Shown here one piece after another: positions 24,418 to 58,509 of a stretch of DNA of 64,000 nt; positions within the stretch are counted from its first letter, which is position 1, and the number at the start of each line of letters is the position of its first letter. Both the position numbers and the translations under genes were made by a program. Source of the DNA: Verrucomicrobiota bacterium (GTDB lineage: Bacteria; Verrucomicrobiota; Verrucomicrobiia; Opitutales; Seribacteraceae); the NCBI GenBank assembly GCA_027622665.1, contig JAQBYT010000005.1:32001-96000 (forward strand). The letters are read 5' to 3'. Below the pieces are notes generated by a model that saw nothing but the letters and a program-made list of their open reading frames with translations, had not been told where the DNA came from and made no database searches.

Positions 24418-26589
24418 TTAAAACGAGTGCGACAAGGATACGATAAAATTACGACCGGGACCGTTGAGGCCGGAACCGTGCACCCGGTAGTCTTCGTCTC
24501 CGAGGTTCTCGGCAGCCAATGAGATCGCGGAGTTTTCGCCGATCGATCGTCCCCCGCGCAGACCGAAAAGAATGTAACCCGGGGTGCCGTTGGTAGGTAT
24601 ACGGGAGTCGTCGCTTTCGTCCTTAAGGGAAAGATCGTCCGCTCTGTCGACTGCAAGAATGGACAATTCCCCCCACCAAGGAGATGCAGGCGGGGCGTAG
24701 CGGGTAAGGAACTCCGCTTGAATTGGCATCAGGCGTGTGGTGGCACGGTCGACGGGCATGTAATTCCGCCCATCTATGGATACCGTTCCCGTTGCATTGT
24801 CATCCAATAACTGCTCGACCTCGCCGTCCATCCAGGAAAAACTCAGTTCAGAACTCCAAGAGGAAGTCCAATCGTAGCCCAGTTCGATCTCGATTCCTTG
24901 AATGAATCCGTCCCCGTTAGCCTTGAGGACGTCGGATTTACCGGATTCGATTGGGGAGCGAACGATCATATCGTTGATCCAAGTGTGATAAGCGGAAACC
25001 ATGAATTTCCAATCTCCCTCGGTTTTCCTTAAGCCGACTTCCAATTGGAGGAAGGTTTCTGAATCAAGTGAGGTGTTTGGGCTTTCCACGGCACTGGTTT
25101 CATCCGTTGAGGTCAGGTCGTATAAACTTGGCGGACGAAATCCTTGAGAGAGTCCCCCGAAAAGGAAGTTTCCATCCGAGATTTCCTTGCTGATCCTTAG
25201 TGACCCAATCAACTCTTCGTATTTCTTTGTTTTTGGATTTTGAATCGTCGAAGTATCGCTGTTCTTTAAATAGTATCGGCCGAGTTCGGCCTGGACGGAG
25301 GAAAAGCGGATGCCTGGCTCGAAGGTCCATCCGGAAGTCACCTCGTAGGTGTCGTTTACGTAAATGGCGTAACGATGATGCCGGGCTTCTGCGGCCAAGG
25401 GGCCTTGAGCATAGTCTCGTGCTATTCCTGAAGAATTGTTCAAGTCTGATCCAAAGGAAGAGACGTCCTCTAAATGACATTCAAAGCCATACGCGAGTCT
25501 GCCACCCCATGGGTCATCGGTTTCAAAACGAGAAGAAAATCCCAAATCATCGAGATCAAAACCCTGCTTGTCGTCAATAAGATGTGTGCCTGACTTTTCC
25601 CTTCTACGATGCCGCTCTTGGCCATGTTGGTGGAAGCTGAGAGTCAGCAAGCCGGCATCCGCCAAACCGCCGGCGCCCTCCCAAGCGAGCTTTCCATAAT
25701 AAAGGTTTCGTTCCTGATCGAGGCGTCGCCAGATCTCTTTGCCTTTGGAGAGACCTTCCCATTCCAATCCATCGACTGTCTTGTGGGTGCGAGGGACATC
25801 TTCCATGAAGACGCGCTGAAAGCCAAAAGTTATGCTAGAGTCCTCTCCGAGTCTTCGCGCTAGACGAAAATTGGTCCCGAGCACATCATAACCTGTATTT
25901 ATCTGTTTGCCGACCTGTCGTCCACCTTCCAAGTCCCCAAAACTTCTTTCGGCATGGGATAGCTCGGCGAACCAATTTTTTGTTGAAACTTCCCCTTTGA
26001 CATGTCCCGTCCACGAAGATTCGGCTGAAGAGAAACGAGCGAATGCCTCACCCTTAGAGAGAATTCCTTCATCTGTGAAATATGGATTTTCAGATATGAT
26101 GTTGACTACTCCTCCAATTGCATCTGCACCGTACGTTATTCCATTCGGTCCACGTACCAATTCGATGCGATCTGCCCCTAGAATTTCTACTGTGCTCCAG
26201 TATTGGTTTGGGCCGGAGCGCATGGCGGAATGATTGAGACGAATGCCATCAACGAGAAGTAGATTGTGGTAGCCCGTGAAGCCTCTTACATATGGAGATG
26301 ACTGCCCCAACGCCGTTTTTTGCACCATGACGGAGGGCAAGCCCGACAGTGCCTCGGGCATCGATCTTGCCGTAAGTCGAATATCGTTTACCTCCATCCT
26401 TTCCGTTGACCATGGCGAGCTAGCCATGGGTTCAGCAAACCCTCCTCGGGCAGTTACTACCATTGGCGCTAAAGCCTCAGTTTCATTTTTGTCAGCTCTC
26501 GAGAACTTGGCAACGAATAGACTGTAGATGGAGACACCAATTAGTAGAAAAGTTCGTGAGTAAATACGGCAAGCGAAAGCAAGGCCCAT
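24418..26589 (-). CDS. TonB-dependent receptor
   Basis: MVVTA TonB-box region; plug VQKTALGQSSPYVRG..IELVRGP..YGADAIGGVVN; C-terminal ENLGDEDY..PGRNF..SHSF. Start uncertain (26589-26631). Confidence 0.9.
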   Translation of the reverse strand: MGLAFACRIYSRTFLLIGVSIYSLFVAKFSRADKNETEALAPMVVTARGGFAEPMASSPWSTERMEVNDIRLTARSMPEALSGLPSVMVQKTALGQSSPYVRGFTGYHNLLLVDGIRLNHSAMRSGPNQYWSTVEILGADRIELVRGPNGITYGADAIGGVVNIISENPYFTDEGILSKGEAFARFSSAESSWTGHVKGEVSTKNWFAELSHAERSFGDLEGGRQVGKQINTGYDVLGTNFRLARRLGEDSSITFGFQRVFMEDVPRTHKTVDGLEWEGLSKGKEIWRRLDQERNLYYGKLAWEGAGGLADAGLLTLSFHQHGQERHRRREKSGTHLIDDKQGFDLDDLGFSSRFETDDPWGGRLAYGFECHLEDVSSFGSDLNNSSGIARDYAQGPLAAEARHHRYAIYVNDTYEVTSGWTFEPGIRFSSVQAELGRYYLKNSDTSTIQNPKTKKYEELIGSLRISKEISDGNFLFGGLSQGFRPPSLYDLTSTDETSAVESPNTSLDSETFLQLEVGLRKTEGDWKFMVSAYHTWINDMIVRSPIESGKSDVLKANGDGFIQGIEIELGYDWTSSWSSELSFSWMDGEVEQLLDDNATGTVSIDGRNYMPVDRATTRLMPIQAEFLTRYAPPASPWWGELSILAVDRADDLSLKDESDDSRIPTNGTPGYILFGLRGGRSIGENSAISLAAENLGDEDYRVHGSGLNGPGRNFIVSLSHSF

Positions 26590-26763
26590 TCTGATTGCAA
26601 TTGTTATTGCGTACATTTTGTTCGAAAACATCCTTAGGTTTAGTTCCCATTGGTTTCTGGATGGAAATTCCAGTAAAAGTTGATTTAAAGTTGAAATTAT
26701 TAGAAACCCATAAATTTACTGAGGTAGTTGACAATCTAAAATATAAGGTTTCTCTTTAATTCA

Positions 26764-32548: not shown

Positions 32549-33208
32549 CTAGCTTGAGACTAAAATCTTTTTGGCTGCTTTCGAACCTAGAGTGAAAGGC
32601 TTACCCTTACCCACTCCCAATTCTACCGCATCAGAAATTAAATCGCGGTTGGTAACTTCCACCGCGGTTCCGGGCACTAAACCCTTTCTTCTGGCGAAGT
32701 TCAGAAAATCGGTGCTCTGGTCAGTCAAAAGTTTGATTGTGCACGGTTGCTTACTTTGGCACTCCAGCAAGTTGCGGATTCGCCGTTCTGCAAATTTTCC
32801 GTCCTTTGTCGGGATGGGGTCGCCGTGAGGATCGAATTCAGGTCGCCCGAGGAATTCATCCAGTCGATCGAGGACTTTGTCCGATATGGCGTGCTCCAAT
32901 TCCTCGGCTTCTTGATGAACTTCCGTCCAGTCCAACCCTAAGGTTTCCACCAAGAAGGTTTCCACGAGTCGATGTCGCCTCAGCATGTCCATGCCCAACT
33001 TTCGGCCTTTTGCGGTGAGCGTTACTCCTTGTCTCGATTTGTAGCGCACCAACTTTTCTCGTTCCAAAGTTTTAATCATTGAGGTGGCGGTTCCCGCTGC
33101 TACATCAAGTCCCTTGGCGATTTCTCCCATACCCACTTGTCCCTCGCTCGTTTCTAGAGACAGGACGAGAATCTTTTTGACGTAATTTTCTACCGTTGCG
33201 CTGGGCAT
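32549..33208 (-). CDS. DtxR/MntR family metalloregulator (TroR-like) with a FeoA domain
   Basis: TVENYVK, RRHRLVETFL, EVHQEAEELEH, DPHGDPIP; divergent from troA. Confidence 0.93.
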   Translation of the reverse strand: MPSATVENYVKKILVLSLETSEGQVGMGEIAKGLDVAAGTATSMIKTLEREKLVRYKSRQGVTLTAKGRKLGMDMLRRHRLVETFLVETLGLDWTEVHQEAEELEHAISDKVLDRLDEFLGRPEFDPHGDPIPTKDGKFAERRIRNLLECQSKQPCTIKLLTDQSTDFLNFARRKGLVPGTAVEVTNRDLISDAVELGVGKGKPFTLGSKAAKKILVSS

Positions 33209-33239: not shown

Positions 33240-33310
33240 TTGACACAAGATTATTCGATGACGAGACTTTGACTAATCAAAACCAAATCTTTCACTACAG
33301 AAAATGAAAC
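33240..33310 (+). promoter_or_regulatory. Sigma70 promoter plus TroR/DtxR-type operator of the tro operon
   Basis: TTGACA (33240)-17 bp-GAGACT. Inverted repeat TTTGA-CTAA-TCAAA at 33268-33281; weaker TTTC-ACTACA-GAAA 22 bp downstream. Confidence 0.75.
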
Positions 33311-33338
33311 CCTGTTTTATTTTGCCCGGAGTCAACTT

Positions 33339-34265
33339 ATGCAACTTCTTGGACTTGGATCAATCTTTACGATCTTGTTTTTAGCAGGATGCGATGCAGG
33401 CGATTCGGATGGGAAGCTGGTTGTTGTAACAACGACCACTCATGTTACGGACATGGTGAAGTTTGTAGCTGGTGACCGTTTGGATGTGATTGCGCTCATG
33501 GGGCCGGGCGTAGACCCCCACTTATACAAGCCATCTGCTGGAGATGCGGCTACCTTGGCCAAGGCTGATTTGATTTTCTTTAGTGGCCTGATGCTGGAAG
33601 GTCGTATGGCCGACGTTTTTGCAAAAGTCTCTCGCCGGGGAACCAAAGCTTATGCGGTAACCGAGAACGTGTCCGAAAAATCACTTCTCGAACCTGAAGA
33701 GTTTGAGGGACACTGGGATCCTCACGTATGGTTCGATCCCGCGATCTGGTCAAAGTGCGTTGACGTCGTCAGTGATGCCCTCTCTGAAAATGATCCTGAG
33801 GGCAAGGTTGGCTATACCGAAAGGGCAGAGGCACTGAAGACCGAGTATCTCGCCGTGACCCACTGGGCACAGGCGCGCTTAAGCGGTTTGCCCGAAGAAT
33901 CTCGTTATCTTGTTACCAGTCACGATGCCTTCAATTACTTCGGGCGTGCTTTTGGTCTCGAAGTCCTCGCCGTTCAAGGTGTTTCTACCGCTACCGAAGC
34001 AGGGCTTGCCGATCGAGTGGCCATGGTTGACTTCGTGAAGAAGCATGGCGTTAAGGCAATCTTTGTGGAAAGCAGTGTTAATCCTGCGATAATTGAGGGC
34101 ATCGCCAAGGAAGCCGGCGTGAAGATCGGAGGAGAATTGTTTTCCGACGCCATGGGCCAACCGGGTCGTTTGGAAAAGGGACCTGATGGCGAACAATACG
34201 ACATAGGCACTTGGGCTGGAATGATGAGGCATAACGTGAACACTATCGTAGAAGGGTTGAAGTAA
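33339..34265 (+). CDS. troA: Mn/Zn/Fe ABC transporter solute-binding lipoprotein
   Basis: Lipobox LAGC; GVDPHLY, DPHVWFD, TSHDAFNYF, LFSDAMG. Confidence 0.92.
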   Translation: MQLLGLGSIFTILFLAGCDAGDSDGKLVVVTTTTHVTDMVKFVAGDRLDVIALMGPGVDPHLYKPSAGDAATLAKADLIFFSGLMLEGRMADVFAKVSRRGTKAYAVTENVSEKSLLEPEEFEGHWDPHVWFDPAIWSKCVDVVSDALSENDPEGKVGYTERAEALKTEYLAVTHWAQARLSGLPEESRYLVTSHDAFNYFGRAFGLEVLAVQGVSTATEAGLADRVAMVDFVKKHGVKAIFVESSVNPAIIEGIAKEAGVKIGGELFSDAMGQPGRLEKGPDGEQYDIGTWAGMMRHNVNTIVEGLK

Positions 34266-34269
34266 TAAT

Positions 34270-35061
34270 ATGGCTCATCCCCCCCCACTGGAGATTCACG
34301 ACCTCACGGTTTCCTATGATCGCAAGCCAGTCCTTTATGGGGTGGATGTCGTTGTTGAGACTGGTTCGTTGGTCGGCGTGGTAGGGCCGAACGGGGCTGG
34401 TAAGTCTACCCTGATCAAGACCATCATGGGCATCGTGCAGCCTAATGGCGGATGGGTGAAAATCTTTGGCCAACCATACAGGAAAGCAGTCACGCGTGTC
34501 GGTTACGTTCCGCAGCGCGAATCGGTAGATTGGGACTTTCCCGTGAGCGTTATGGATGTTGTTCTTATGGGGCGATATGGTCATGCTGGGTTCATGCGGC
34601 GAGTCAGTAAGCGAGATCGCCGGATCGCTTCCGAATGTTTGGAAAAAGTGAATATGCAGCCTTTTTCGGATCGCCAGATCGGCAATCTATCGGGCGGGCA
34701 GCAGCAGCGTGTCTTTCTTGCCCGAGCCCTTGCTCAAGAGAGCGACCTTTATCTTATGGACGAACCTTTTGCCGGGGTCGACGCCGCTACCGAGACAGCG
34801 ATTGTAGAGTTATTGCGTGATTTGAAGGAGCGGGGCAAAACCCTCATCGTAGTCCATCACGACCTTTCCTCTGCCCGCGAATATTTTGATAAGCTTATGC
34901 TGCTCAACATGCGACTTGTTGCTTATGGGGAAATGGAGGAAACCTTCACTCCCGATCTTCTGCAAAAAACCTACGGAGGGCGTCTCACCATCCTGTCGGA
35001 TGTCGCCGGTCAAGCGGCTGGTCGCTCGGAGTTCGAGCAAGAAGGCACTCCCAAGCTATAA
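34270..35061 (+). CDS. troB: Mn/Zn/Fe ABC transporter ATPase
   Basis: GPNGAGKST, YVPQRESVDWDFP, LSGGQQQRVFLARAL, VHHDL. Confidence 0.93.
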   Translation: MAHPPPLEIHDLTVSYDRKPVLYGVDVVVETGSLVGVVGPNGAGKSTLIKTIMGIVQPNGGWVKIFGQPYRKAVTRVGYVPQRESVDWDFPVSVMDVVLMGRYGHAGFMRRVSKRDRRIASECLEKVNMQPFSDRQIGNLSGGQQQRVFLARALAQESDLYLMDEPFAGVDAATETAIVELLRDLKERGKTLIVVHHDLSSAREYFDKLMLLNMRLVAYGEMEETFTPDLLQKTYGGRLTILSDVAGQAAGRSEFEQEGTPKL

Positions 35062-35062
35062 A

Positions 35063-36558
35063 TGAAAGTTCTACGAACGATCCCGGTTTTTGTATTGCTG
35101 GTCTTTTTTGCCTTTCCTGCGTTAGTTCATGCCGCCCGTATCGGGGACGTGACCGATACGGATTGGGGTGAGCAAACCTTTCGCTTCCTCAGCTTGCGTG
35201 ACGCCGCCGTCCGCAATGCAGTCCTTGGTTCCGTCTTCATGGGTGTCGGTTGTGGTCTTTTCGGTGGATATGTGGTGGCCCGACGTTTGGCATTGTTTGG
35301 CGATACCTTGTCGCACGCGGTGCTCCCGGGAGTGGCTCTCGGCTTCCTTTGGAGTCGCTCGAAAGATCCCGTGGCCATTTTTATCGGAGCTACGGTGGCT
35401 GGGTTGTTGGGAACGTTTGTGGTTGCTTGGATACGCAAAACCACAAGGGTGAAAGAGGACAGTGCCTTGGGTCTCGTCCTTTCCGGATTCTATGCGGTGG
35501 GCATTTGTATTCTGACGGTTATTCAGCAGATGGAGTTCGGCAACCAGTCCGGCATCGACAAATTTCTTTTCGGGCAAGCTGCCGCCCTTTCGTCCGAGGA
35601 CGTGAGTCTGATGGGAGTAGTTGCCATAGGGGCGCTGATGATGGTCACTCTTTTTAACAAGGAGCTTCTCGTAACGAGTTTCGACGAAGGCTTTGCTCGC
35701 TCCGTGGGCGTACCCGTTGAGTTTATTCGTTACGTACTCCTCGTCGGTCTCACTTTTGCGGTGGTCACCTCGCTGCAGGCGGTGGGCGTGGTTCTTGTTT
35801 CCGCCCTTCTCATTACCCCCGCAGCCACCGCCTACTTGCTGACCGATCGGATGGGAACCTTGCTGTTGCTTTCGGCTCTGTTTGGGGTTGCGGGCGGATT
35901 GCTCGGTTCGTACGGCTCTTTTCTCGGCAATAATCTGCCAACGGGTCCTTTCATGGTTCTTGCCTGTACTTCTTTCTTTGCCATCGCCTTTTTTTGCGGT
36001 CCCAAGCATGGGTTGGTCTCCAAGTGGCTAAGGCGACGAAACCGAGTTCGTCAAGTGAGTTTGGAGAATACAATGAAGGCTGCCTATCAAGTGCTCGAGG
36101 CGGGCGATTTTGCTAAAGAGTCCGTAACCGTTGGAGCTCTGGCCGCTCGGAGACGGACAAGCGTGACCGAGGCTCGACGAGAGGCGGATGATCTCGTGAA
36201 CGCCGGTTTCGCGAGCATGCTCGGTTCCGACGACCCTGGTCCTCGTTATTCTCAAGACGCCAGACTCTCCCTTACTCCCGCCGGTTGGGAACGAGCCTGC
36301 CAAATTGTTCGTAACCACCGCCTTTGGGAACTCTACTTGACCAACGAGGTGCGCTATGCCGCCGATCACGTTCATGAGGATGCCGAAAAGATCGAGCATG
36401 TTTTGGGCGAAAAAGTTGTGCGTCATCTCGAGCGCATCCTAAAGGACCCCCAACGCGATCCTCACGGTTCAGTCATCCCCAGTCTCGAGGACATAGAACG
36501 TGGCTCTGGCTTATCGACCAATCCTGCATCCGCGACAGGGTACTTCCAGCAAAATTAA
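35063..36558 (+). CDS. troC: Metal ABC permease fused to a C-terminal DtxR-type repressor domain (YtgCR-like)
   Basis: GDTLSHAVLPG ABC-3 permease followed by LENTMKAAY..LTPAGW..RNHRLWELYL..HVHEDAEKIEH..DPHGSVIP. Start within a base or two of the troB stop. Confidence 0.88.
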
Positions 36559-36563
36559 AAACG

Positions 36564-37547
36564 ATGCGCGAAGAGTTTTTTCCGACCTTTGACTCCGGGT
36601 CCGTTTTTGTGGATCCTTGGTTGTCCGGTTTCGAGAGCACCTTTCAGGTGGTCCTAATGGGTTTTTTTGTATGCTTGGCTTGCGGTGTCATAGGAAATTT
36701 CGTGGTTGCCCGTCGTCTTGCCTTGGTGGGCGACGCCATCAGCCACAGCCTGCTGCCTGGTATTGCCATTGCCTTTGTCTTCACTTCCTCACATTCGTTG
36801 CCTGCAATGTTGATTGGAGCTGCCGTCGCGGGTGTTCTTACCACGGTTCTGATCGAGCTGATTCACCGCAAGTCAAGGGTGAAGCCCGACGCAGCCATTG
36901 GGATCGTCTTCACTACCCTCTTTGCGGTGGGTGTGGTGGTAATCAGCATTTGGCTGGACAATGTCCACCTCGATGCAGATTGCGTGCTTTATGGTGAGAT
37001 CGGCCTAGTTCCATTACGGGAAAGCTTCATCTTGAGCGGAGCGAATCTTGGTCCGCTGCCAATCGCTATTATGGGCGCAGTAGCCCTGTTGGACATACTT
37101 CTAGTTATTGTTTTTTACAGGGTGCTCCTTGTCACGTCTTTCGATGCCGGGCTTGCTCGATCGCTGGGAATGCCCGTGAACACCACACATTATGGGCTTA
37201 TGATTGCCTTGGCGCTTACCATTGTGGCGGCCTTCGAGGCAGTGGGAGTTGTCCTGGTCGTTGCCATGCTTATTTTCCCCGCAGTCACGGTCGGTTTCTT
37301 TTTCGAGCGTTTACCGGCATTGCTGTTTGGTGTGGCGCCTCTTTCCTTGGCATATTCCCTCGGTGGTTTCCACCTCGCCAGGTGGTTGGACTGTTCAATC
37401 GCAGGGGCTATGGTGGTAACGGCCGGCGCATTATTTGTCGTGGCTTGGTTTTTCGGACCCAAGGGTGGCTTAATTTATCGCTCACGCGCGCTAGGTTTCC
37501 TTTTTGCAACATCCAAGCAGAAGATATCCCCGCAGATTGTCGGGTGA
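36564..37547 (+). CDS. troD: Metal ABC transporter second permease
   Basis: GDAISHSLLPG, VHLDADCVLYGE, AAFEAVGVVLVVAML. Confidence 0.9.
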   Translation: MREEFFPTFDSGSVFVDPWLSGFESTFQVVLMGFFVCLACGVIGNFVVARRLALVGDAISHSLLPGIAIAFVFTSSHSLPAMLIGAAVAGVLTTVLIELIHRKSRVKPDAAIGIVFTTLFAVGVVVISIWLDNVHLDADCVLYGEIGLVPLRESFILSGANLGPLPIAIMGAVALLDILLVIVFYRVLLVTSFDAGLARSLGMPVNTTHYGLMIALALTIVAAFEAVGVVLVVAMLIFPAVTVGFFFERLPALLFGVAPLSLAYSLGGFHLARWLDCSIAGAMVVTAGALFVVAWFFGPKGGLIYRSRALGFLFATSKQKISPQIVG

Positions 37548-52735: not shown

Positions 52736-54772
52736 TCAAGGCTTGGATTCCTGTTTCTCGTCCAATTTTTCAAGCTCGACCGAGTCCTTGATTGCTCCTT
52801 GAAACTCCTTGTCAAAGGAGACCCGGTTTCCTGATTCGGTCTTTCCTCTGTTTTGATGTGGATGGGGGCGGAAAATCATCTTTCCTCCTAGCCATTCAAG
52901 CTTCGCAAGCCTGGGGGGCTTGCCATTCCAATTGCTCTTCCTTGCCCGCGGATCCTCCGTGCGGTTGGCCGGGGAAAGCAGAAGCTCGGTCGCTTCATCC
53001 CAATCCTTCATCGCTTGCCCTTTCGCATTACTGAACTGTGACACTTGCAGACTTAATTTGTGCACACCCCCTTTTGGCAAATCGACCAAGGCCACAAAAG
53101 TATCCCGCTTTCTTCCGGTATACCCCTGCCAATGATTCACATTGATTTGCACGCCGAGCTGGTTGCCATCTCCAAAGGTTTCGATTTCCACACCTAGCTC
53201 TCCCTGCTTGGGCCCGATCCAAGATGGATCGACAATCTTGCGGGTGGCATACTTCCAATGATGCGGATTTCTCCAACTCAAGCGATACCAGTCCTGCCAA
53301 CCTCTTGAGAAATCATCGATCAAGCGACTTGGTCTTTCGGTCGGTTTTGTTTTCGATTTCCTTAAATCCTCGGGATAAGCCGTCCGGTACTCGGAACTGA
53401 GGGTCAGAAGCTTGGTCGCCTCGGTTCCCGGACGGGGTGGAAGAGCCCTTGGCATCTCGTAGGTAAGGTTGGCAAAGGCGAAGAGCGGTTCTGCACTGTC
53501 GAACACCGGGCATTCCCCTTCGTAAACCTTCCCGGACTTTCGAACCTCGGCACCCCGCCAGAAACGAATGCGCGGATCCCTGGCATACCCGTAGTAGATC
53601 TCCACTTCCTTCACCGGCAAACCGCTTGATTGATCAACCTGCACCCGAAAGAGCGGAACCCCGTTATCCGTATTCAGAACCAATTCCGCGGGCGAGACTT
53701 TGGGAAACCGAAAGCTTTTCTTGAGGCGGGCTTCCATCCACATGAAACGGGCGGCAGAGGTTTGATCGGTAAAGCGATGATTCAAATGAGGAGCCAACAC
53801 GAGCATCCTCTCCGTTTCAGGAGGCAACTCGGACATGCCCTTGACCACCCATTCCGTCGGGGAGTTGAAATCATTGGTCGATCCGAGAAAAAGGATCGGG
53901 GCGGTGACGTGGGGCCAATGAGACTGGGCGGAGACACATTTGCGATAAAGGGCCAAACCGTCTTCCTTGGTCATTCTTCGGGCGCTCCCTGGCAAGCCCC
54001 ACAGGTCATCGTAGAGATATCCGCTCCCTCCTACGGAAGGTGAGGCCGCCTTGACCCGCGGGTCGATGCATGAAATTACGGTGGAACGCCCCCCCATCGA
54101 GTGCCCCTCCACACCAAGCTTGTCAGGGTCTACCCCTTCGGTTTGCTCAAGCATCGTCAAGGCCCGCCGCACGCAAATTGAGATTAAATTCCAACTGCTG
54201 TTCAGGGGGTGAGGTTCTTTGAAGAGGGTATTCGGATCGGGTCTGACGGTGTTGTGATGATCCAGTTGATCTGCCTTGGTCACCCCCGGACGAATGAAGC
54301 CCGCCGCCAAACCATCCCAGTCCGTGTTAGGCGTATCCGCTTTTTCCAAAACTTTTCCTCCCCAATTGATGCTCACGCACGCATATCCCATCTCCATCCA
54401 GTCCTCCACCCGTCTACGGTTTGCCCGCTGCCCACCTCCGTGAACGTGAACGATGCCCGGCTTGGACTCCTTTCCTTTGGGCAAGCCCAAATAGGCGGCA
54501 ACGACTGGCCTGGCGGATTTGTTACTCCCTTGAAGCTTGCCCAAAGAATAAAGAACGAGCCTTACATCGCCCTGTTCCGTTTGCCAGGATTCGACGACCC
54601 GGACGTTAAGTGGCTCCTTGCGGGCATCATAGCTCATCCAGAAATCGAGCATGTTGGAAACCAAATTTCTTCCGCCGAAAGACGGTATCCCCGTCTCACC
54701 GAAGGTTGAGAGGGGGGACAAGAAAATCAGCCCTAGCTTGAAAAGGAAACCGGTTTTGGGTTTGAAACTCAT
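52736..54772 (-). CDS. Exported esterase (dienelactone hydrolase-like) with a C-terminal carbohydrate-binding-like domain
   Basis: HVHGGGQ, INWGG, GHSMGG, PHLNH, LIDDF..GWQDW. Confidence 0.75.
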   Translation of the reverse strand: MSFKPKTGFLFKLGLIFLSPLSTFGETGIPSFGGRNLVSNMLDFWMSYDARKEPLNVRVVESWQTEQGDVRLVLYSLGKLQGSNKSARPVVAAYLGLPKGKESKPGIVHVHGGGQRANRRRVEDWMEMGYACVSINWGGKVLEKADTPNTDWDGLAAGFIRPGVTKADQLDHHNTVRPDPNTLFKEPHPLNSSWNLISICVRRALTMLEQTEGVDPDKLGVEGHSMGGRSTVISCIDPRVKAASPSVGGSGYLYDDLWGLPGSARRMTKEDGLALYRKCVSAQSHWPHVTAPILFLGSTNDFNSPTEWVVKGMSELPPETERMLVLAPHLNHRFTDQTSAARFMWMEARLKKSFRFPKVSPAELVLNTDNGVPLFRVQVDQSSGLPVKEVEIYYGYARDPRIRFWRGAEVRKSGKVYEGECPVFDSAEPLFAFANLTYEMPRALPPRPGTEATKLLTLSSEYRTAYPEDLRKSKTKPTERPSRLIDDFSRGWQDWYRLSWRNPHHWKYATRKIVDPSWIGPKQGELGVEIETFGDGNQLGVQINVNHWQGYTGRKRDTFVALVDLPKGGVHKLSLQVSQFSNAKGQAMKDWDEATELLLSPANRTEDPRARKSNWNGKPPRLAKLEWLGGKMIFRPHPHQNRGKTESGNRVSFDKEFQGAIKDSVELEKLDEKQESKP

Positions 54773-54854
54773 GTAGCCAACCTAAACCATCTCAGGCAAA
54801 GGTTAAGCTCAGAAGCATTCGTTTGATTGGTTTCTTAGCCGACAAGCCGGACGG

Positions 54855-55682
54855 CTACCATCTGCGTGTGAACCCAAAGAATAGACCAAAATCCTCCGAC
54901 GTATTGTTCAAGCCAACCTGAGTTCCAAGATCAAGTACAAGATCTTCGTGTACGGTGTAGGTAAAGCCACCTGCCCCGAAAGCCCGATAGGACGGATCAC
55001 CCTCTATCCCGACGTACTCTACGAAGGAACCGAACCGTTGGTTCAGGTCGAAACCGAGCACGGCTGAGTGCAGAAACTCGAAGTCGTGGTCTTTGCGAAC
55101 CGCATCGTAGATGACGTCGAATTCAGCCATCAGGCCAAGGCCTATTCCTCCGGAAATTTCCGTAGCATAAGGAATGATCAAGCCACCCTCCCATTCGTCA
55201 TTGCTGAATTGCGCAGTCGTGGGGATTTTCACGAAGGGGAAAAGGGCGAGAGCGGAATCACCTCCGTCATTACCCCAAAGGTTGTATTTGAGCCTTAACT
55301 GGACATCGCCGAAGCCCTCTGAGTCCTTACCGACCTTCGGGTCTTCCCTGGTGTAGGTATCGAAAACGATCTGCAAATCCACATCGTTGGAGAGACCGAT
55401 TTTGAAGTTGGTCGACAGAAGGGTGTGAGTATCGCTTCCATCGTTTCTTCGCCAATCAAAGACACTGGTCTCTATCACGAAATGACCTGCATCCACGGTC
55501 AATGGACTTTCCGTCGCATCCGGTCGGTCGGGGGATAGCTCGCGCATGAGCTCACGGGGCGTCGGATTGAGGAGGGTGTATTGGCTCTTTGAACCAGACA
55601 CTGGCAAGCTATTCTCGGCAGCAACTTCCGGAAAGGGAGTTGATCCGATGGTAAGGCTAACAAGGATGGGGATAAGTTTCAT
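54855..55682 (-). CDS. Outer-membrane beta-barrel ('transporter', MetA-pathway/CoxB-like)
   Basis: Signal peptide; RELSPDRPDATESPLTVDAGHF, GFGD..LRLKYNLWGND, PFVKIPT; C-terminal FTRRW. Confidence 0.8.
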   Translation of the reverse strand: MKLIPILVSLTIGSTPFPEVAAENSLPVSGSKSQYTLLNPTPRELMRELSPDRPDATESPLTVDAGHFVIETSVFDWRRNDGSDTHTLLSTNFKIGLSNDVDLQIVFDTYTREDPKVGKDSEGFGDVQLRLKYNLWGNDGGDSALALFPFVKIPTTAQFSNDEWEGGLIIPYATEISGGIGLGLMAEFDVIYDAVRKDHDFEFLHSAVLGFDLNQRFGSFVEYVGIEGDPSYRAFGAGGFTYTVHEDLVLDLGTQVGLNNTSEDFGLFFGFTRRW

Positions 55683-55746
55683 TTTTTCTAGTGAAAGATC
55701 AGATTTTGATTAATCAAAGTATCGTCCTCGAATGATCTTGTGTCAA
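55676..55746 (-). promoter_or_regulatory. Promoter/operator nearly identical to the tro promoter
   Basis: The reverse complement matches 33240-33310 at 62/71 with no gaps. TTGACA-17-GATACT; perfect palindrome TTTGATTAATCAAA at 55705-55718. Confidence 0.85.
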
Positions 55747-55786
55747 TCGTTGACGGCCTTGTTTTAAGCAGGTGCTTGGGCTTTAT

Positions 55787-57868
55787 TTACTCCGGCAAGG
55801 CAAAGGCCACCAAGCTGCCACCTTTTGGCCGACCGGATTTCCCGCCGCTCGCGGAGATCACAACGAATTGCCGACCCTTCACCATGTAGGTACTGGGTGT
55901 AGAGTTGCCGCTGAAGGGCAACTTTGCTTGGAAGAGCGTCTTGCCGTTCTCCTTGTCGAAAACACGGAAAGTTTCGTCCGCCGTCGCACCGATGAAGATC
56001 AAGCCTGATGCTGTCACCAAGGGGCCGCCGTAGTTTTCAGTCCCGGTCGGAGGTATTCCTCGGGCAGTCAGTTCCGGGTACTCGCCGAGGATCACCTTCC
56101 ACTTGATTTCGCCCGTGTTGAGGTCGACCGCGTTGAGGGTTCCCCAAGGCGGCTTGATGGCAGGATATCCTTCGGGGTCCAGCCAGCGTCGGAAACCTCC
56201 GAAGGCATAGGCAGGCGGTTGTTTTTTGTCTACCTTCGGGTCAGGCGCTCCCGTCTCGGGTCGTGAGGCGCTGGGCGCCTTGTAGTTCAATACGTAGTCG
56301 AGGATGGCCTTACGCTTGCCTTCCGGCATGACCGCGTAACCGGGCATGCGCCCTCCGCCCTGCCGTGTGATCAACTCGATTTCCTCACGGGTCTTCCGCT
56401 CGCCGATGCCAAGCAAGGGTGGAAATCCAGCCAGCAGGTTTCCTTTGCGGTCCAAGCCATGGCAAGCACCGCAAAAGATCATGTAGTCACGCTCCCCGCG
56501 AACCAGCTTGGACCCATCGGCCTTGCGCGTCTCGATCATCTGCAACAACCAAGGCATTTCATTGATATTGACGTAATAGATGCCATCCGGATCGGCTGCC
56601 CCACCACCCCATTCCATTCCGCCATCGTAGCCCGGAAACATTACCGTTTCCTTCAAGCTCGGGGCAGGAAAGGGCCCAAAGTTGGGCGAGGCCTTGATAC
56701 GATCCAAAGTAAGCTGATGGGTCTGCGGAGAAATGTTTGATGCATCGGCCTCGGTGTACTTCTGGCGCATGAGCGGCGGGGGCTTGGTTGGAAACGGCTG
56801 GGTCGGCCAAGCTTTTTCTCCTTCAAGGTCGGAGGCCTGCACCGGGCGTTCCTCGATCGGCCAGAGGGGTTCACCCGTTTCACGATTAAAGACAAACAGT
56901 AGGCCGTGCTTGGTTCCCTGGGCTACCGCATCGATCTTTTTCCCCTTGTGCGTGACCGTCACCAGTACCGGCGGACAGGGCAGATCTTTGTCCAGCAGGT
57001 CATGGTGCACGATTTGGTAGTGCCAGATGTGCTTCCCGGTCGCTGCGTTCAAGGCAAGCACGCAGTTGGCGAACAGGTTCTCTCCATGCCGCCGTCCACC
57101 ATAGAAATCAGGTTCGGCGGTCTTCGTCGCCACGTAGACGATGCCCCGTTTCTCGTCGAGCGACTGGCCGCACCAAGGCATCAGGCCGGTGGCGGTCTTG
57201 TAGGCATCCTTGGGCCAGGTGTGGTAGCCTACTTCACCGGGCCGTGGAATCAGATGAAAAATCCAGCGTTGGGATCCCGTGCGCACGTCGTAGGCCCGCA
57301 CCGCACCCTTGCCTCCAACGCCCCCGACGATGACGAGGTCCTTGTAGACCACGCCCGGTGTGTTCAAGCCCGAACCAAGCTTGATCGCCCCTTCCTTTCC
57401 AAAATCCTTGATCACCTTGCCGGTCGCCGGGTCCAAGGCAAAGAGCATCCCCGCAACCGCGGTGAACAATCGCCGCTCGGCGCCTTTCTCATTTTCCCAA
57501 TAGACCAAGCCCCGCTGCCGGGCGCTCCCTTTGCCCGGACCGTCCTTGGCCGGGTCCCAGATCCAGCGTACCGTTCCTGTCGCACCATCAAGGGCAATTA
57601 CTTTTCGAGTGGGAGTCGGTGTGTACACGATCCCATCAACAATCAGGTTGTTCGCCTGGTACTCGGCTTTGTCCCCAGTTTCATACCGCCATGCAATCCG
57701 GAGCTTCGACACGTTGTCCCGGTTGATATGCTCCAATGAAGAATACAGGTTGCGGCCTTTTCCGCCGAGGTACTCTCGCCAATCAGCGTTTTCTTTGGTG
57801 TCAGCCGACAGAGAACCAACGGCGAGGAATAGAGTGGTAGTCAATATATATGTCGTCCGGATGAGCAT
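55787..57868 (-). CDS. PQQ-dependent dehydrogenase (glucose/quinate type) with an inserted cytochrome c domain
   Basis: YSSLEHINRDNV, WHYQIVHHD..D.D, PTQPFP, CGACHG..RMPG, KPPWGTL.AVDL, GTENYGGP. Confidence 0.88.
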   Translation of the reverse strand: MLIRTTYILTTTLFLAVGSLSADTKENADWREYLGGKGRNLYSSLEHINRDNVSKLRIAWRYETGDKAEYQANNLIVDGIVYTPTPTRKVIALDGATGTVRWIWDPAKDGPGKGSARQRGLVYWENEKGAERRLFTAVAGMLFALDPATGKVIKDFGKEGAIKLGSGLNTPGVVYKDLVIVGGVGGKGAVRAYDVRTGSQRWIFHLIPRPGEVGYHTWPKDAYKTATGLMPWCGQSLDEKRGIVYVATKTAEPDFYGGRRHGENLFANCVLALNAATGKHIWHYQIVHHDLLDKDLPCPPVLVTVTHKGKKIDAVAQGTKHGLLFVFNRETGEPLWPIEERPVQASDLEGEKAWPTQPFPTKPPPLMRQKYTEADASNISPQTHQLTLDRIKASPNFGPFPAPSLKETVMFPGYDGGMEWGGGAADPDGIYYVNINEMPWLLQMIETRKADGSKLVRGERDYMIFCGACHGLDRKGNLLAGFPPLLGIGERKTREEIELITRQGGGRMPGYAVMPEGKRKAILDYVLNYKAPSASRPETGAPDPKVDKKQPPAYAFGGFRRWLDPEGYPAIKPPWGTLNAVDLNTGEIKWKVILGEYPELTARGIPPTGTENYGGPLVTASGLIFIGATADETFRVFDKENGKTLFQAKLPFSGNSTPSTYMVKGRQFVVISASGGKSGRPKGGSLVAFALPE

Positions 57869-57898: not shown

Positions 57899-58509
57899 CG
57901 GCAAGTTCAGACCATGCGAGACTGACCTAATCCTTGATTGGGCGTGACCACCGGCCGACGCCATGTCCACGGGAAATCATGATCGCCTGGAGGTTGCCTG
58001 AATTATGAATGAATCTTTCGCCCCACAGGCTTCATGGAACTCCTGAATTACCGGTGCGGCAGCGGCCGGCTCCCATTCTGGATGAACCCCGTCACTTGCA
58101 GGAGAGTAAGAATAGAATACACGCGGTGCAATGGCCGCAAACGCATCCGGTTTCATCGCCAGACCTGCAAAGGGAATTGCAATCCCCCCCCGTCCTCTCG
58201 TCTACCTGAATGTTCGTGGCGCCATCTAGACCTTTGAGGTGAAACCTTCGATGCTCTTTTAGCCCGTACTGCAAATATTACGCGTCGAACAAAGTCCCCG
58301 ACGCGCCAAGCATGATCCGACCAAAACTATGGGCACCGCGGTCGGCCTTGATTTCTACATCGCTCGTCGAAGCCAGAAAATCAAACAGATGCAGAAATGT
58401 GGCATGCTTCCAAATCTCGTCATTCAATTTTCCATCGATCGCCCTCACTCGGCAAGTTAAGAGCATGGCAACTGATCTAATCCTTGATTGGGTGCGACCA
58501 TCGCCTGAC
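57899..58509. repeat. Imperfect direct repeat of about 60 bp (57899-57959 and 58450-58509)
   Basis: 50/61 identity with one gap; shared core CTAATCCTTGATTGGG. Confidence 0.8.
57990..58440 (-). pseudogene. Remnant of a CBM9/DOMON-like sugar-binding domain gene
   Basis: Fragments IDGKLNDEIWKHA and IAIPFAGLA in different frames; boundaries approximate. Confidence 0.45.

Follow-up and report, generated by a model that had tools for sequence, protein, structure and literature searches.

Outer-membrane channels of the COG4313 type have been described for the uptake of hydrophobic molecules (PMC4493636 and PMC9581022), and the three channels discussed in the first of these sources were assigned to hydrophobic solutes; Pput2725 (PDB 4RL8) was a poor channel for polar solutes, of which only glycine passed clearly (PMC4493636). 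The family has also been described for amyloid export by FapF (PDB 5O65), the plug of which is pinned by salt bridges involving E98, E111, R157 and K401 (PMC5557850). Manganese is taken across the outer membrane by other proteins: MnoP of Bradyrhizobium japonicum, treated as distant from the rhizobial porins (PMC6011978), lets Mn into proteoliposomes and is required when Mn is scarce (PMC9334652); OmpU and MnoT are further routes (PMC9334652), and an MntR-controlled TonB-dependent protein is a candidate (PMC13217887). DtxR-family repressors such as SloR of Streptococcus mutans bind adjacent sites cooperatively over 72–76 bp (PMC11566000). In the full-text literature nothing was found that links the PF13557/COG4313 family to manganese, a zinc regulon or metal (subscription journals, supplementary tables and regulon databases lay outside the scope of this search), or that describes outer-membrane manganese uptake with a DtxR protein in Verrucomicrobia; an earlier in-silico assignment may exist.

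The window analysed here (the whole stretch of 64,000 nucleotides from a bacterium of the Verrucomicrobiota) contained a tro locus and, some distance away, a barrel gene behind a similar promoter. The tro locus comprised the following features.

32549..33208, minus strand: troR, DtxR-family repressor of three domains (DNA-binding, metal/dimer, FeoA), by domain search.
33240..33310, plus strand: tro promoter/operator, inferred source of the copy, from the 71-mer match and comparison with sister species.
33266..33283, no strand assigned: main tro operator, scoring 24.0 bits, the runner-up genome-wide.
33288..33305, no strand assigned: downstream operator-like site at the tro locus, by matrix score.
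33304..33384, plus strand: putative 26-codon ORF from the shared ATG, overlapping the troA start and out of frame with troA.
33339..34265, plus strand: troA, metal-binding lipoprotein PF01297, by domain search.
34270..35061, plus strand: troB, ABC ATPase, by domain search.
35062..36558, plus strand: troC, ABC-3 permease with a C-terminal DtxR-type metal-binding domain, YtgC-like, by domain search.
36564..37547, plus strand: troD, ABC-3 permease, by domain search.

The repressor gene is divergent from troA-troB-troC-troD, and the genome-wide search gave one troA and one stand-alone DtxR-family repressor. TroR shares its three-domain build with TroR of Treponema denticola (PMC2628430); in Treponema, however, troR lies downstream, and the host regulon would differ further in including an outer-membrane barrel, the T. 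denticola TroR paper (PMC2628430) making no mention of the outer membrane. The permease–repressor fusion is common to TroC and to YtgC of Chlamydia ytgABCD (PMC5599777). In the present genome the fusion coexists with a separate stand-alone troR.

The barrel locus comprised the following features.

54855..55682, minus strand: 275-aa outer-membrane beta-barrel, PF13557/COG4313, by Pfam match and predicted structure.
55676..55746, minus strand: 71-bp promoter/operator copy before the barrel, by inverted repeat and match to the tro promoter.
55681..55698, no strand assigned: weaker operator-like site of the barrel, 22 bp downstream of the main one and reaching the start codon, by matrix score.
55703..55720, no strand assigned: main TroR-type operator of the barrel, 18 bp, overlapping the –10, 31.4 bits, the best in the genome.
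55718..55746, minus strand: sigma-70-type promoter of the barrel, TTGACA-17 bp-GATACT, with 10 of 12 consensus matches.

The reverse complement of 55676–55746 was identical to 33240–33310 at 62 of 71 positions by sequence comparison, gap-free; the match, reported in the first-pass annotation, was confirmed by this comparison and by a genome scan, and the pair (plus strand at tro, minus strand at the barrel) was the longest inverted repeat in the window. Identity by segment was: –35, 6/6; spacer, 15/17; –10, 5/6; rest of the operator, 13/15; downstream part, 17/21; tail, 6/6. A gap-free scan of the 4.5-Mb assembly gave two copies only, the runners-up reaching 38 and 40 of 71; the match is expected by chance about 1e-16 times or less per genome, and the flanks of the two 71-mers were unrelated on either side. 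With only two copies there is no repeat family; a widespread dispersed repeat, named at first pass as a finding that would undo the reading, or a mobile element, was accordingly rejected. Both loci were present on near-identical contigs of two further seawater metagenomes (X13 and X14), so that the pair is not an assembly artefact. In these metagenomes contig depth was 6–8 at the barrel locus and 36–38 at the tro locus, which fits an accessory gene, depth not being equal to share of cells. Short contigs from RNA libraries (X15 and X16) covered parts of the barrel and its promoter; they are not proof of transcription, strand or regulation.

The match had been said to include the ATG, and this stood for one side only: the ATG starts the 275-aa barrel but at 33304 is out of frame with troA, the listed start of which is at 33339. 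In six sister species (L119–L124) troA seems to begin at an ATG that immediately follows the operator; compared over 33282–33341, this codon is ACC in the host genome and ATC in a conspecific population. The listed troA start lies 57 bases downstream of the lost ATG, and the next in-frame ATG has GGAG upstream. That the shared ATG is the true troA start, masked by a frameshift error, was rejected on the grounds that the region is collinear with the sisters and that contigs of two other metagenomes carry no indel there.

The promoter of the barrel is a consensus match, and shuffled sequences yield 1.1 such sites on average. Its palindrome was compared by eye with the TroR operator oligonucleotides in Table 2 of PMC2628430 and matched that of T. 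pallidum at 16 of 18 positions and that of T. denticola at 15 of 18; the operator overlaps the –10, as in T. pallidum (PMC2628430), and the Treponema core TTTGA-N4-TCAAA, given at first pass, was right. The core was found upstream of troA in 29 of 29 relatives (taken from the best 30 of 70 matches, one of them the own genome). A matrix built from the troA promoter sites of these 29 relatives, the host genome being left out, ranked the barrel operator first in the whole genome (31.4 bits), the troA operator second (24.0) and a site at G000:C47:80553 third (19.5). A weak operator-like match at 25237–25254 (14.9 bits) inside a TonB-dependent receptor gene (24418–26631) is probably due to chance. 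The site 22 bp downstream of the main operator scored a mean of 0.9 bits over 30 promoters vs –32 (sd 6.5) at other offsets. In comparison with the tandem sites of SloR, two sites only are supported here, the second at 22 bp from the first; a third operator at –22, looked for with SloR in mind, scored –17.5 and –19.9, was absent from the top family-wide offsets and was dropped as unsupported. A vestigial divergent troR –10 in the spacer, broken in the barrel copy, fitted 10 of 30 promoters, mostly of close kin, and was set aside as speculation.

The host genome holds the cognate DtxR-family repressor and has the same operator type at its own tro operon. The operator match and the genome-top matrix score thus bear out the proposal that the barrel belongs to the TroR regulon, and TroR very probably binds and represses at the barrel promoter. 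Terminator-like sites were sought on both sides of the barrel (54772–54855 and 55746–55787) and none was found; without a terminator between the upstream PQQ gene and the barrel promoter, read-through could blunt repression. The downstream esterase-like gene (52736–54772) may fall under TroR control as well. A 39-nt direct repeat (85%) occurs at 57921–57959 and 58471–58509, upstream of the PQQ/cytochrome c gene.

For the history of the copied segment, the barrel copy was compared with tro promoters: 62 of 71 bases matched the own promoter, 54–58 those of six sister species and 46 at most those of 23 more distant relatives, and indel-tolerant anchoring gave the same order. The spacer followed suit, with 15 of 17 matches to the own tro promoter, 14–15 to the sisters and 12 at most in the 23 distant relatives. 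Seven bases were common to the barrel copy and the own tro promoter and absent from all six sisters; similar bases occur in distant genera, and some of the seven may be ancestral. The barrel was found in 3 of 76 family genomes and troA in 68 of 76. None of eight genomes of the same genus (51–97% complete) gave a barrel, and in four of that genus different sequence comes after the PQQ gene. One barrel, P0004, is 88% identical with the same N-terminus; that of G459 has 85% DNA identity over the body, together with another signal peptide and promoter and its own operator at nearly equal distance from the start. By inspection, the barrel and troA of G459 have the operator in common, and neither the –35 nor the spacer; in five further genomes with an operator as the sole link, the barrel and troA promoters agreed in 31–41 of 65–71 bases only. 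Promoter copying as a general rule was therefore rejected, being absent from five of five other operator-only barrels and from G459. Regulon membership therefore predates the copy: in G459 and the five other cases of a stand-alone barrel, the operator is all that the barrel and tro promoters have in common. The association with the regulon is old, and the close match is peculiar to the host lineage.

The promoter core was, in our judgement, quite likely copied from the host tro promoter to the barrel. Convergence of two promoters under one repressor, with no copying at all, has in its favour that about 45 of the 71 bases belong to the –35, the –10 or operator sites and that the second operator site is conserved family-wide; it is, however, hardly credible and largely refuted, in view of the spacer values and of the low agreement of the five other co-regulated pairs and of the G459 pair given above. 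The first-pass annotation had offered promoter duplication or the splitting of an ancestral operon as the origin of the identity in the spacer. The former stands as far as copying from tro is concerned but not as the first recruitment, relatives with unrelated promoters also carrying the operator.

The latter is disfavoured. It supposes that the barrel was once the first tro gene and moved away with the promoter or, in a related version, that the 5' end of the barrel converted the 3' part of the tro promoter, overwriting tro sequence and destroying the old start codon of troA. The order troR–divergent barrel–troA is common elsewhere, the homology stops 4 bases past the barrel ATG, and the troA ATG of the sisters is lost here, all of which suits such events; yet the troR–troA interval is collinear with that of six barrel-less sister species, with the same spacing and without indel or scar, and this speaks against a former position of the barrel in the interval. 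Conversion is not needed to account for fast change, since 31 bases beyond the copied segment are also much diverged from the sisters, and under conversion the –35 and spacer must still derive from a tro promoter of the host genus. Taken together, operon splitting and conversion are regarded as unlikely, and conversion of the last 25 or so bases of the tro-side segment is conceivable.

The barrel gene is single-copy in the genome. Its product, called uncharacterised at first pass, is not without a family: it scored 61 bits against PF13557 (curated cut-off 22); no NCBIfam family was found for it, and sequence and profile searches of PDB chains gave nothing significant. The signal peptide was judged by eye. 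An AlphaFold2 model (mean pLDDT 88.7) showed 12 long strands; the closest fold was FapF (5O65; Z 22.8, rmsd 2.5, 217 aligned, 17% identity), nearly tied with Pput2725 (4RL8; Z 22.6, rmsd 2.2, 217 aligned, 12% identity), and residues 49–55 onward aligned with the N-terminal parts of both structures, residues 51–60 having pLDDT 74. The mature barrel has 40 acidic and 19 basic residues and an N-terminal segment of about 45 aa; its branch is marked by a DRPDxTES segment, almost invariant, ahead of strand 1 and by charged strand residues that are conserved. Judged from their spacing, E58, E71, R130 and R274 probably correspond to the plug-pinning E98, E111, R157 and K401 of FapF, so that part of the charge conservation would be structural. 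No Mn-specific residues separated metal-linked from chemotaxis-linked homologs (five homologs so grouped), and as the invariant charges are equally kept in the latter, structure neither proves nor excludes metal transport. A homolog at L007:7347–8075 (G015) is without the entire DKSxY...DRPD segment and without a clear operator; it keeps synteny with the downstream esterase-like gene and is possibly an unplugged or decaying version.

The likeness to FapF, in fold and, by inference, in plug and wall charges, gives some room to a FapF-like pore for export, which would release surplus metal or a peptide that scavenges metal. FapF and Pput2725 are level as the closest folds, and on Hymenobacter plasmids two homologs (L171 and L172, 37–38%) precede a DUF6660 gene and a CusA/CzcA efflux pump. 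The barrel is, however, without the long periplasmic coiled-coil N-terminus of FapF; no fap-like operon was seen, no conserved small secreted partner was noticed among the ORFs other than short ones, and barrels are co-oriented with importers, behind operators overlapping the –10. Export is accordingly considered very improbable.

Gene neighbourhoods were surveyed with a profile made from 57 of 120 listed homologs; it matched in 32 of 401 phylum genomes (own genome included) and in 86 of 401 class genomes, while a search of genome contigs with the single protein gave 2 loci only. The family comprises 647 clusters at 50% identity with E<=1e-30, and the named species Roseibacillus persicicus carries a 61%-identical homolog. 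The census covered 97 loci from 91 genomes of Verrucomicrobiota, related and not independent, with flanks of 1.5–2 kb; four second-copy barrels adjoining counted loci were excluded, and a partner was scored as linked within 1.3 kb on the same strand. A TroABCD-type gene was co-oriented with the barrel at 39 of 97 loci and an NRAMP gene at 17 of 97 (56 with an importer); a DtxR-family repressor was the only link at 7 and an operator at 5; the remaining 29, without Mn link, fell into 4 kdp operons, 5 chemotaxis/VanY loci and 20 others, two of these 20 lying near contig ends upstream. Two repressor-only loci had first been scored ABC; L223 was moved on Pfam evidence and L239 on a repressor match without Pfam confirmation. 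All four NRAMP partners tested were above the NCBIfam MntH cut-off. TroABCD as the partner of the barrel, proposed at first pass, is thus borne out at 39 of 97 loci but is not the sole partner, an MntH-type NRAMP taking its place at 17. In the five operator-only genomes the barrel and a troA-like gene had the same operator type (5/5); the type varied by genome, TTAG-N6-CTAA in four and the TroR type in one.

Barrel homologs inside tro operons were looked for and found in several gene orders: among the best 80 of 215 metagenome loci the barrel stood in the troA/troB or the troC/troD gap, behind troD, ahead of troA, or by itself across from the repressor, and at two loci of the same 80 it followed a ZIP-like permease, one of these below the Pfam cut-off. 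A clustered count gave a tro neighbour in 40 of 59 clusters, leniently, any single member sufficing. In a FastTree tree (one short row, L237, dropped) ABC and NRAMP contexts alternated between close branches, which points to a link of the barrel with importer function and not with one inherited operon; the tree of metagenome loci was a quick one, with 2 short rows skipped.

Other contexts were also met. In one clade (L234, L235, L238 and L240) the barrel stands between kdpC and kdpD in three cases and between a BBP2 porin and kdpA in one, which suggests a cation-channel role beyond Mn. The neighbours at L093, L095, L099, L102 and L203 are chemotaxis receptor, CheW or VanY genes; no operator was seen at these barrel homologs, for which a non-metal use is possible. 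At L106, L107, L111 and L112 a second, divergent PF13557 barrel adjoins the first, in tandem or across the repressor. Outside the phylum, six of nine plasmid matches were inspected. Two precede a CusA/CzcA efflux gene; a third is close to a cation transporter, and a fourth, interrupted by a transposase, to a heavy-metal ATPase; the other two had no clear metal neighbour.

The barrel thus differs from Pput2725, TcpY and SphA in having metal importers and DtxR-family repressors as neighbours rather than genes of aromatic or sphingosine catabolism, besides its 12% identity to 4RL8 and the lack of a sequence-level PDB match; this gene context argues against the uptake of hydrophobic solutes by the present barrel. 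The barrel is considered likely to admit a divalent metal, most probably Mn2+. The reading as a whole, namely a plugged 12-strand COG4313 entry barrel for Mn2+, repressed by TroR from a copied tro promoter, is held with somewhat less confidence, as the more probable one. With Mn plentiful, TroR dimers would sit, at both loci, on the operator that covers the –10 and on the second site, 22 bp away from it on the downstream side; with Mn scarce, the barrel and troABCD would be derepressed together, the polar lumen of the barrel would pass the cation (Mn2+ likely, possibly also Fe2+ or Zn2+) via a narrow gated pore into the periplasm, to TroA, and TroABCD, or MntH in other genomes, would then move it over the inner membrane. 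Ancestors of the barrel, a patchily distributed accessory gene in the family, would already have been under DtxR-family control when a 71-bp piece of the host's tro promoter was copied to a place before it, ending 4 bases past the start codon. The first-pass proposal of an entry route feeding TroABCD would hold in this form, but not as a required route, in view of the 3 barrels against 68 troA genes in 76 family genomes; the barrel would be an optional high-affinity route and not the sole one. The role proposed is that of MnoP, to which the barrel is likened by role, not by sequence. MnoP is under Fur/Mur control, is not known to answer to a DtxR protein, and probably belongs to a different barrel family.

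A metal-regulated barrel could instead carry a metal–ligand complex (Mn with a small organic anion or metallophore) or a small organic solute. Characterised COG4313 members take organic solutes (PMC4493636), and the conserved set is rich in basic residues (R47, R53, K94, R130, K132 and R274) besides acidic ones. At two loci (L062 and L080) the gene directly after the barrel encodes a product of 700 aa that has a MauG-like domain of the di-haem cytochrome c peroxidase kind, which would suit such a cargo. The partners of the barrel, TroA-type proteins and MntH, however, take the free ion itself; no recurring ligand-synthesis gene was found among the adjacent ORFs scanned, and the related clade in kdp K+ operons suits a plain cation pore. 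Passage of a complex or organic solute is therefore thought rather unlikely, and the free divalent ion is preferred.

As to which ion, Mn is favoured over Fe or Zn because MntH-type NRAMP is the alternative partner, replacing TroABCD at 17 loci, and because TroR has Glu, in HQEAEELEH, at the position of DtxR Cys102/MntR Glu99 (placed by eye; metal site as defined in PMC4805248). Other observations leave room for Fe or Zn: TroR of T. denticola answers to Fe as well as Mn (PMC2628430), the best NCBIfam match of TroA is the zinc protein AztC, below cut-off, and the barrel stands with a ZIP-like permease at the two loci mentioned; the Chlamydia relative of the tro system is iron-linked (PMC5599777).

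The feature is real, and is probably an Mn-linked variant of a known channel fold combined with a lineage-specific promoter capture. Routes of dilute Mn2+ over the outer membrane are known for few bacteria (MnoP, OmpU, MnoT; PMC9334652), and the barrel branch, with its 647 clusters and its presence in 86 of 401 class genomes, R. persicicus among its named carriers, is a candidate outer-membrane Mn channel family; if this is true, metal uptake would become the role of some members of a Pfam family that now carries the label 'phenol degradation'. On a wider reading, to which we give an even chance, the DRPDxTES branch of COG4313 would be a large and hitherto undescribed group of gated channels that carry inorganic cations over the outer membrane, chiefly Mn2+ in partnership with TroABCD or MntH throughout Verrucomicrobiota, with offshoots by the Kdp K+ pump and by Zn/Co/Cd systems, encoded by a mobile accessory gene that recaptures the operator-promoter of its host; the capture would here have been caught while the copies are still 87% identical. 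The promoter pair would offer a clear natural case of a mobile accessory gene gaining a complete regulated promoter in a single step.
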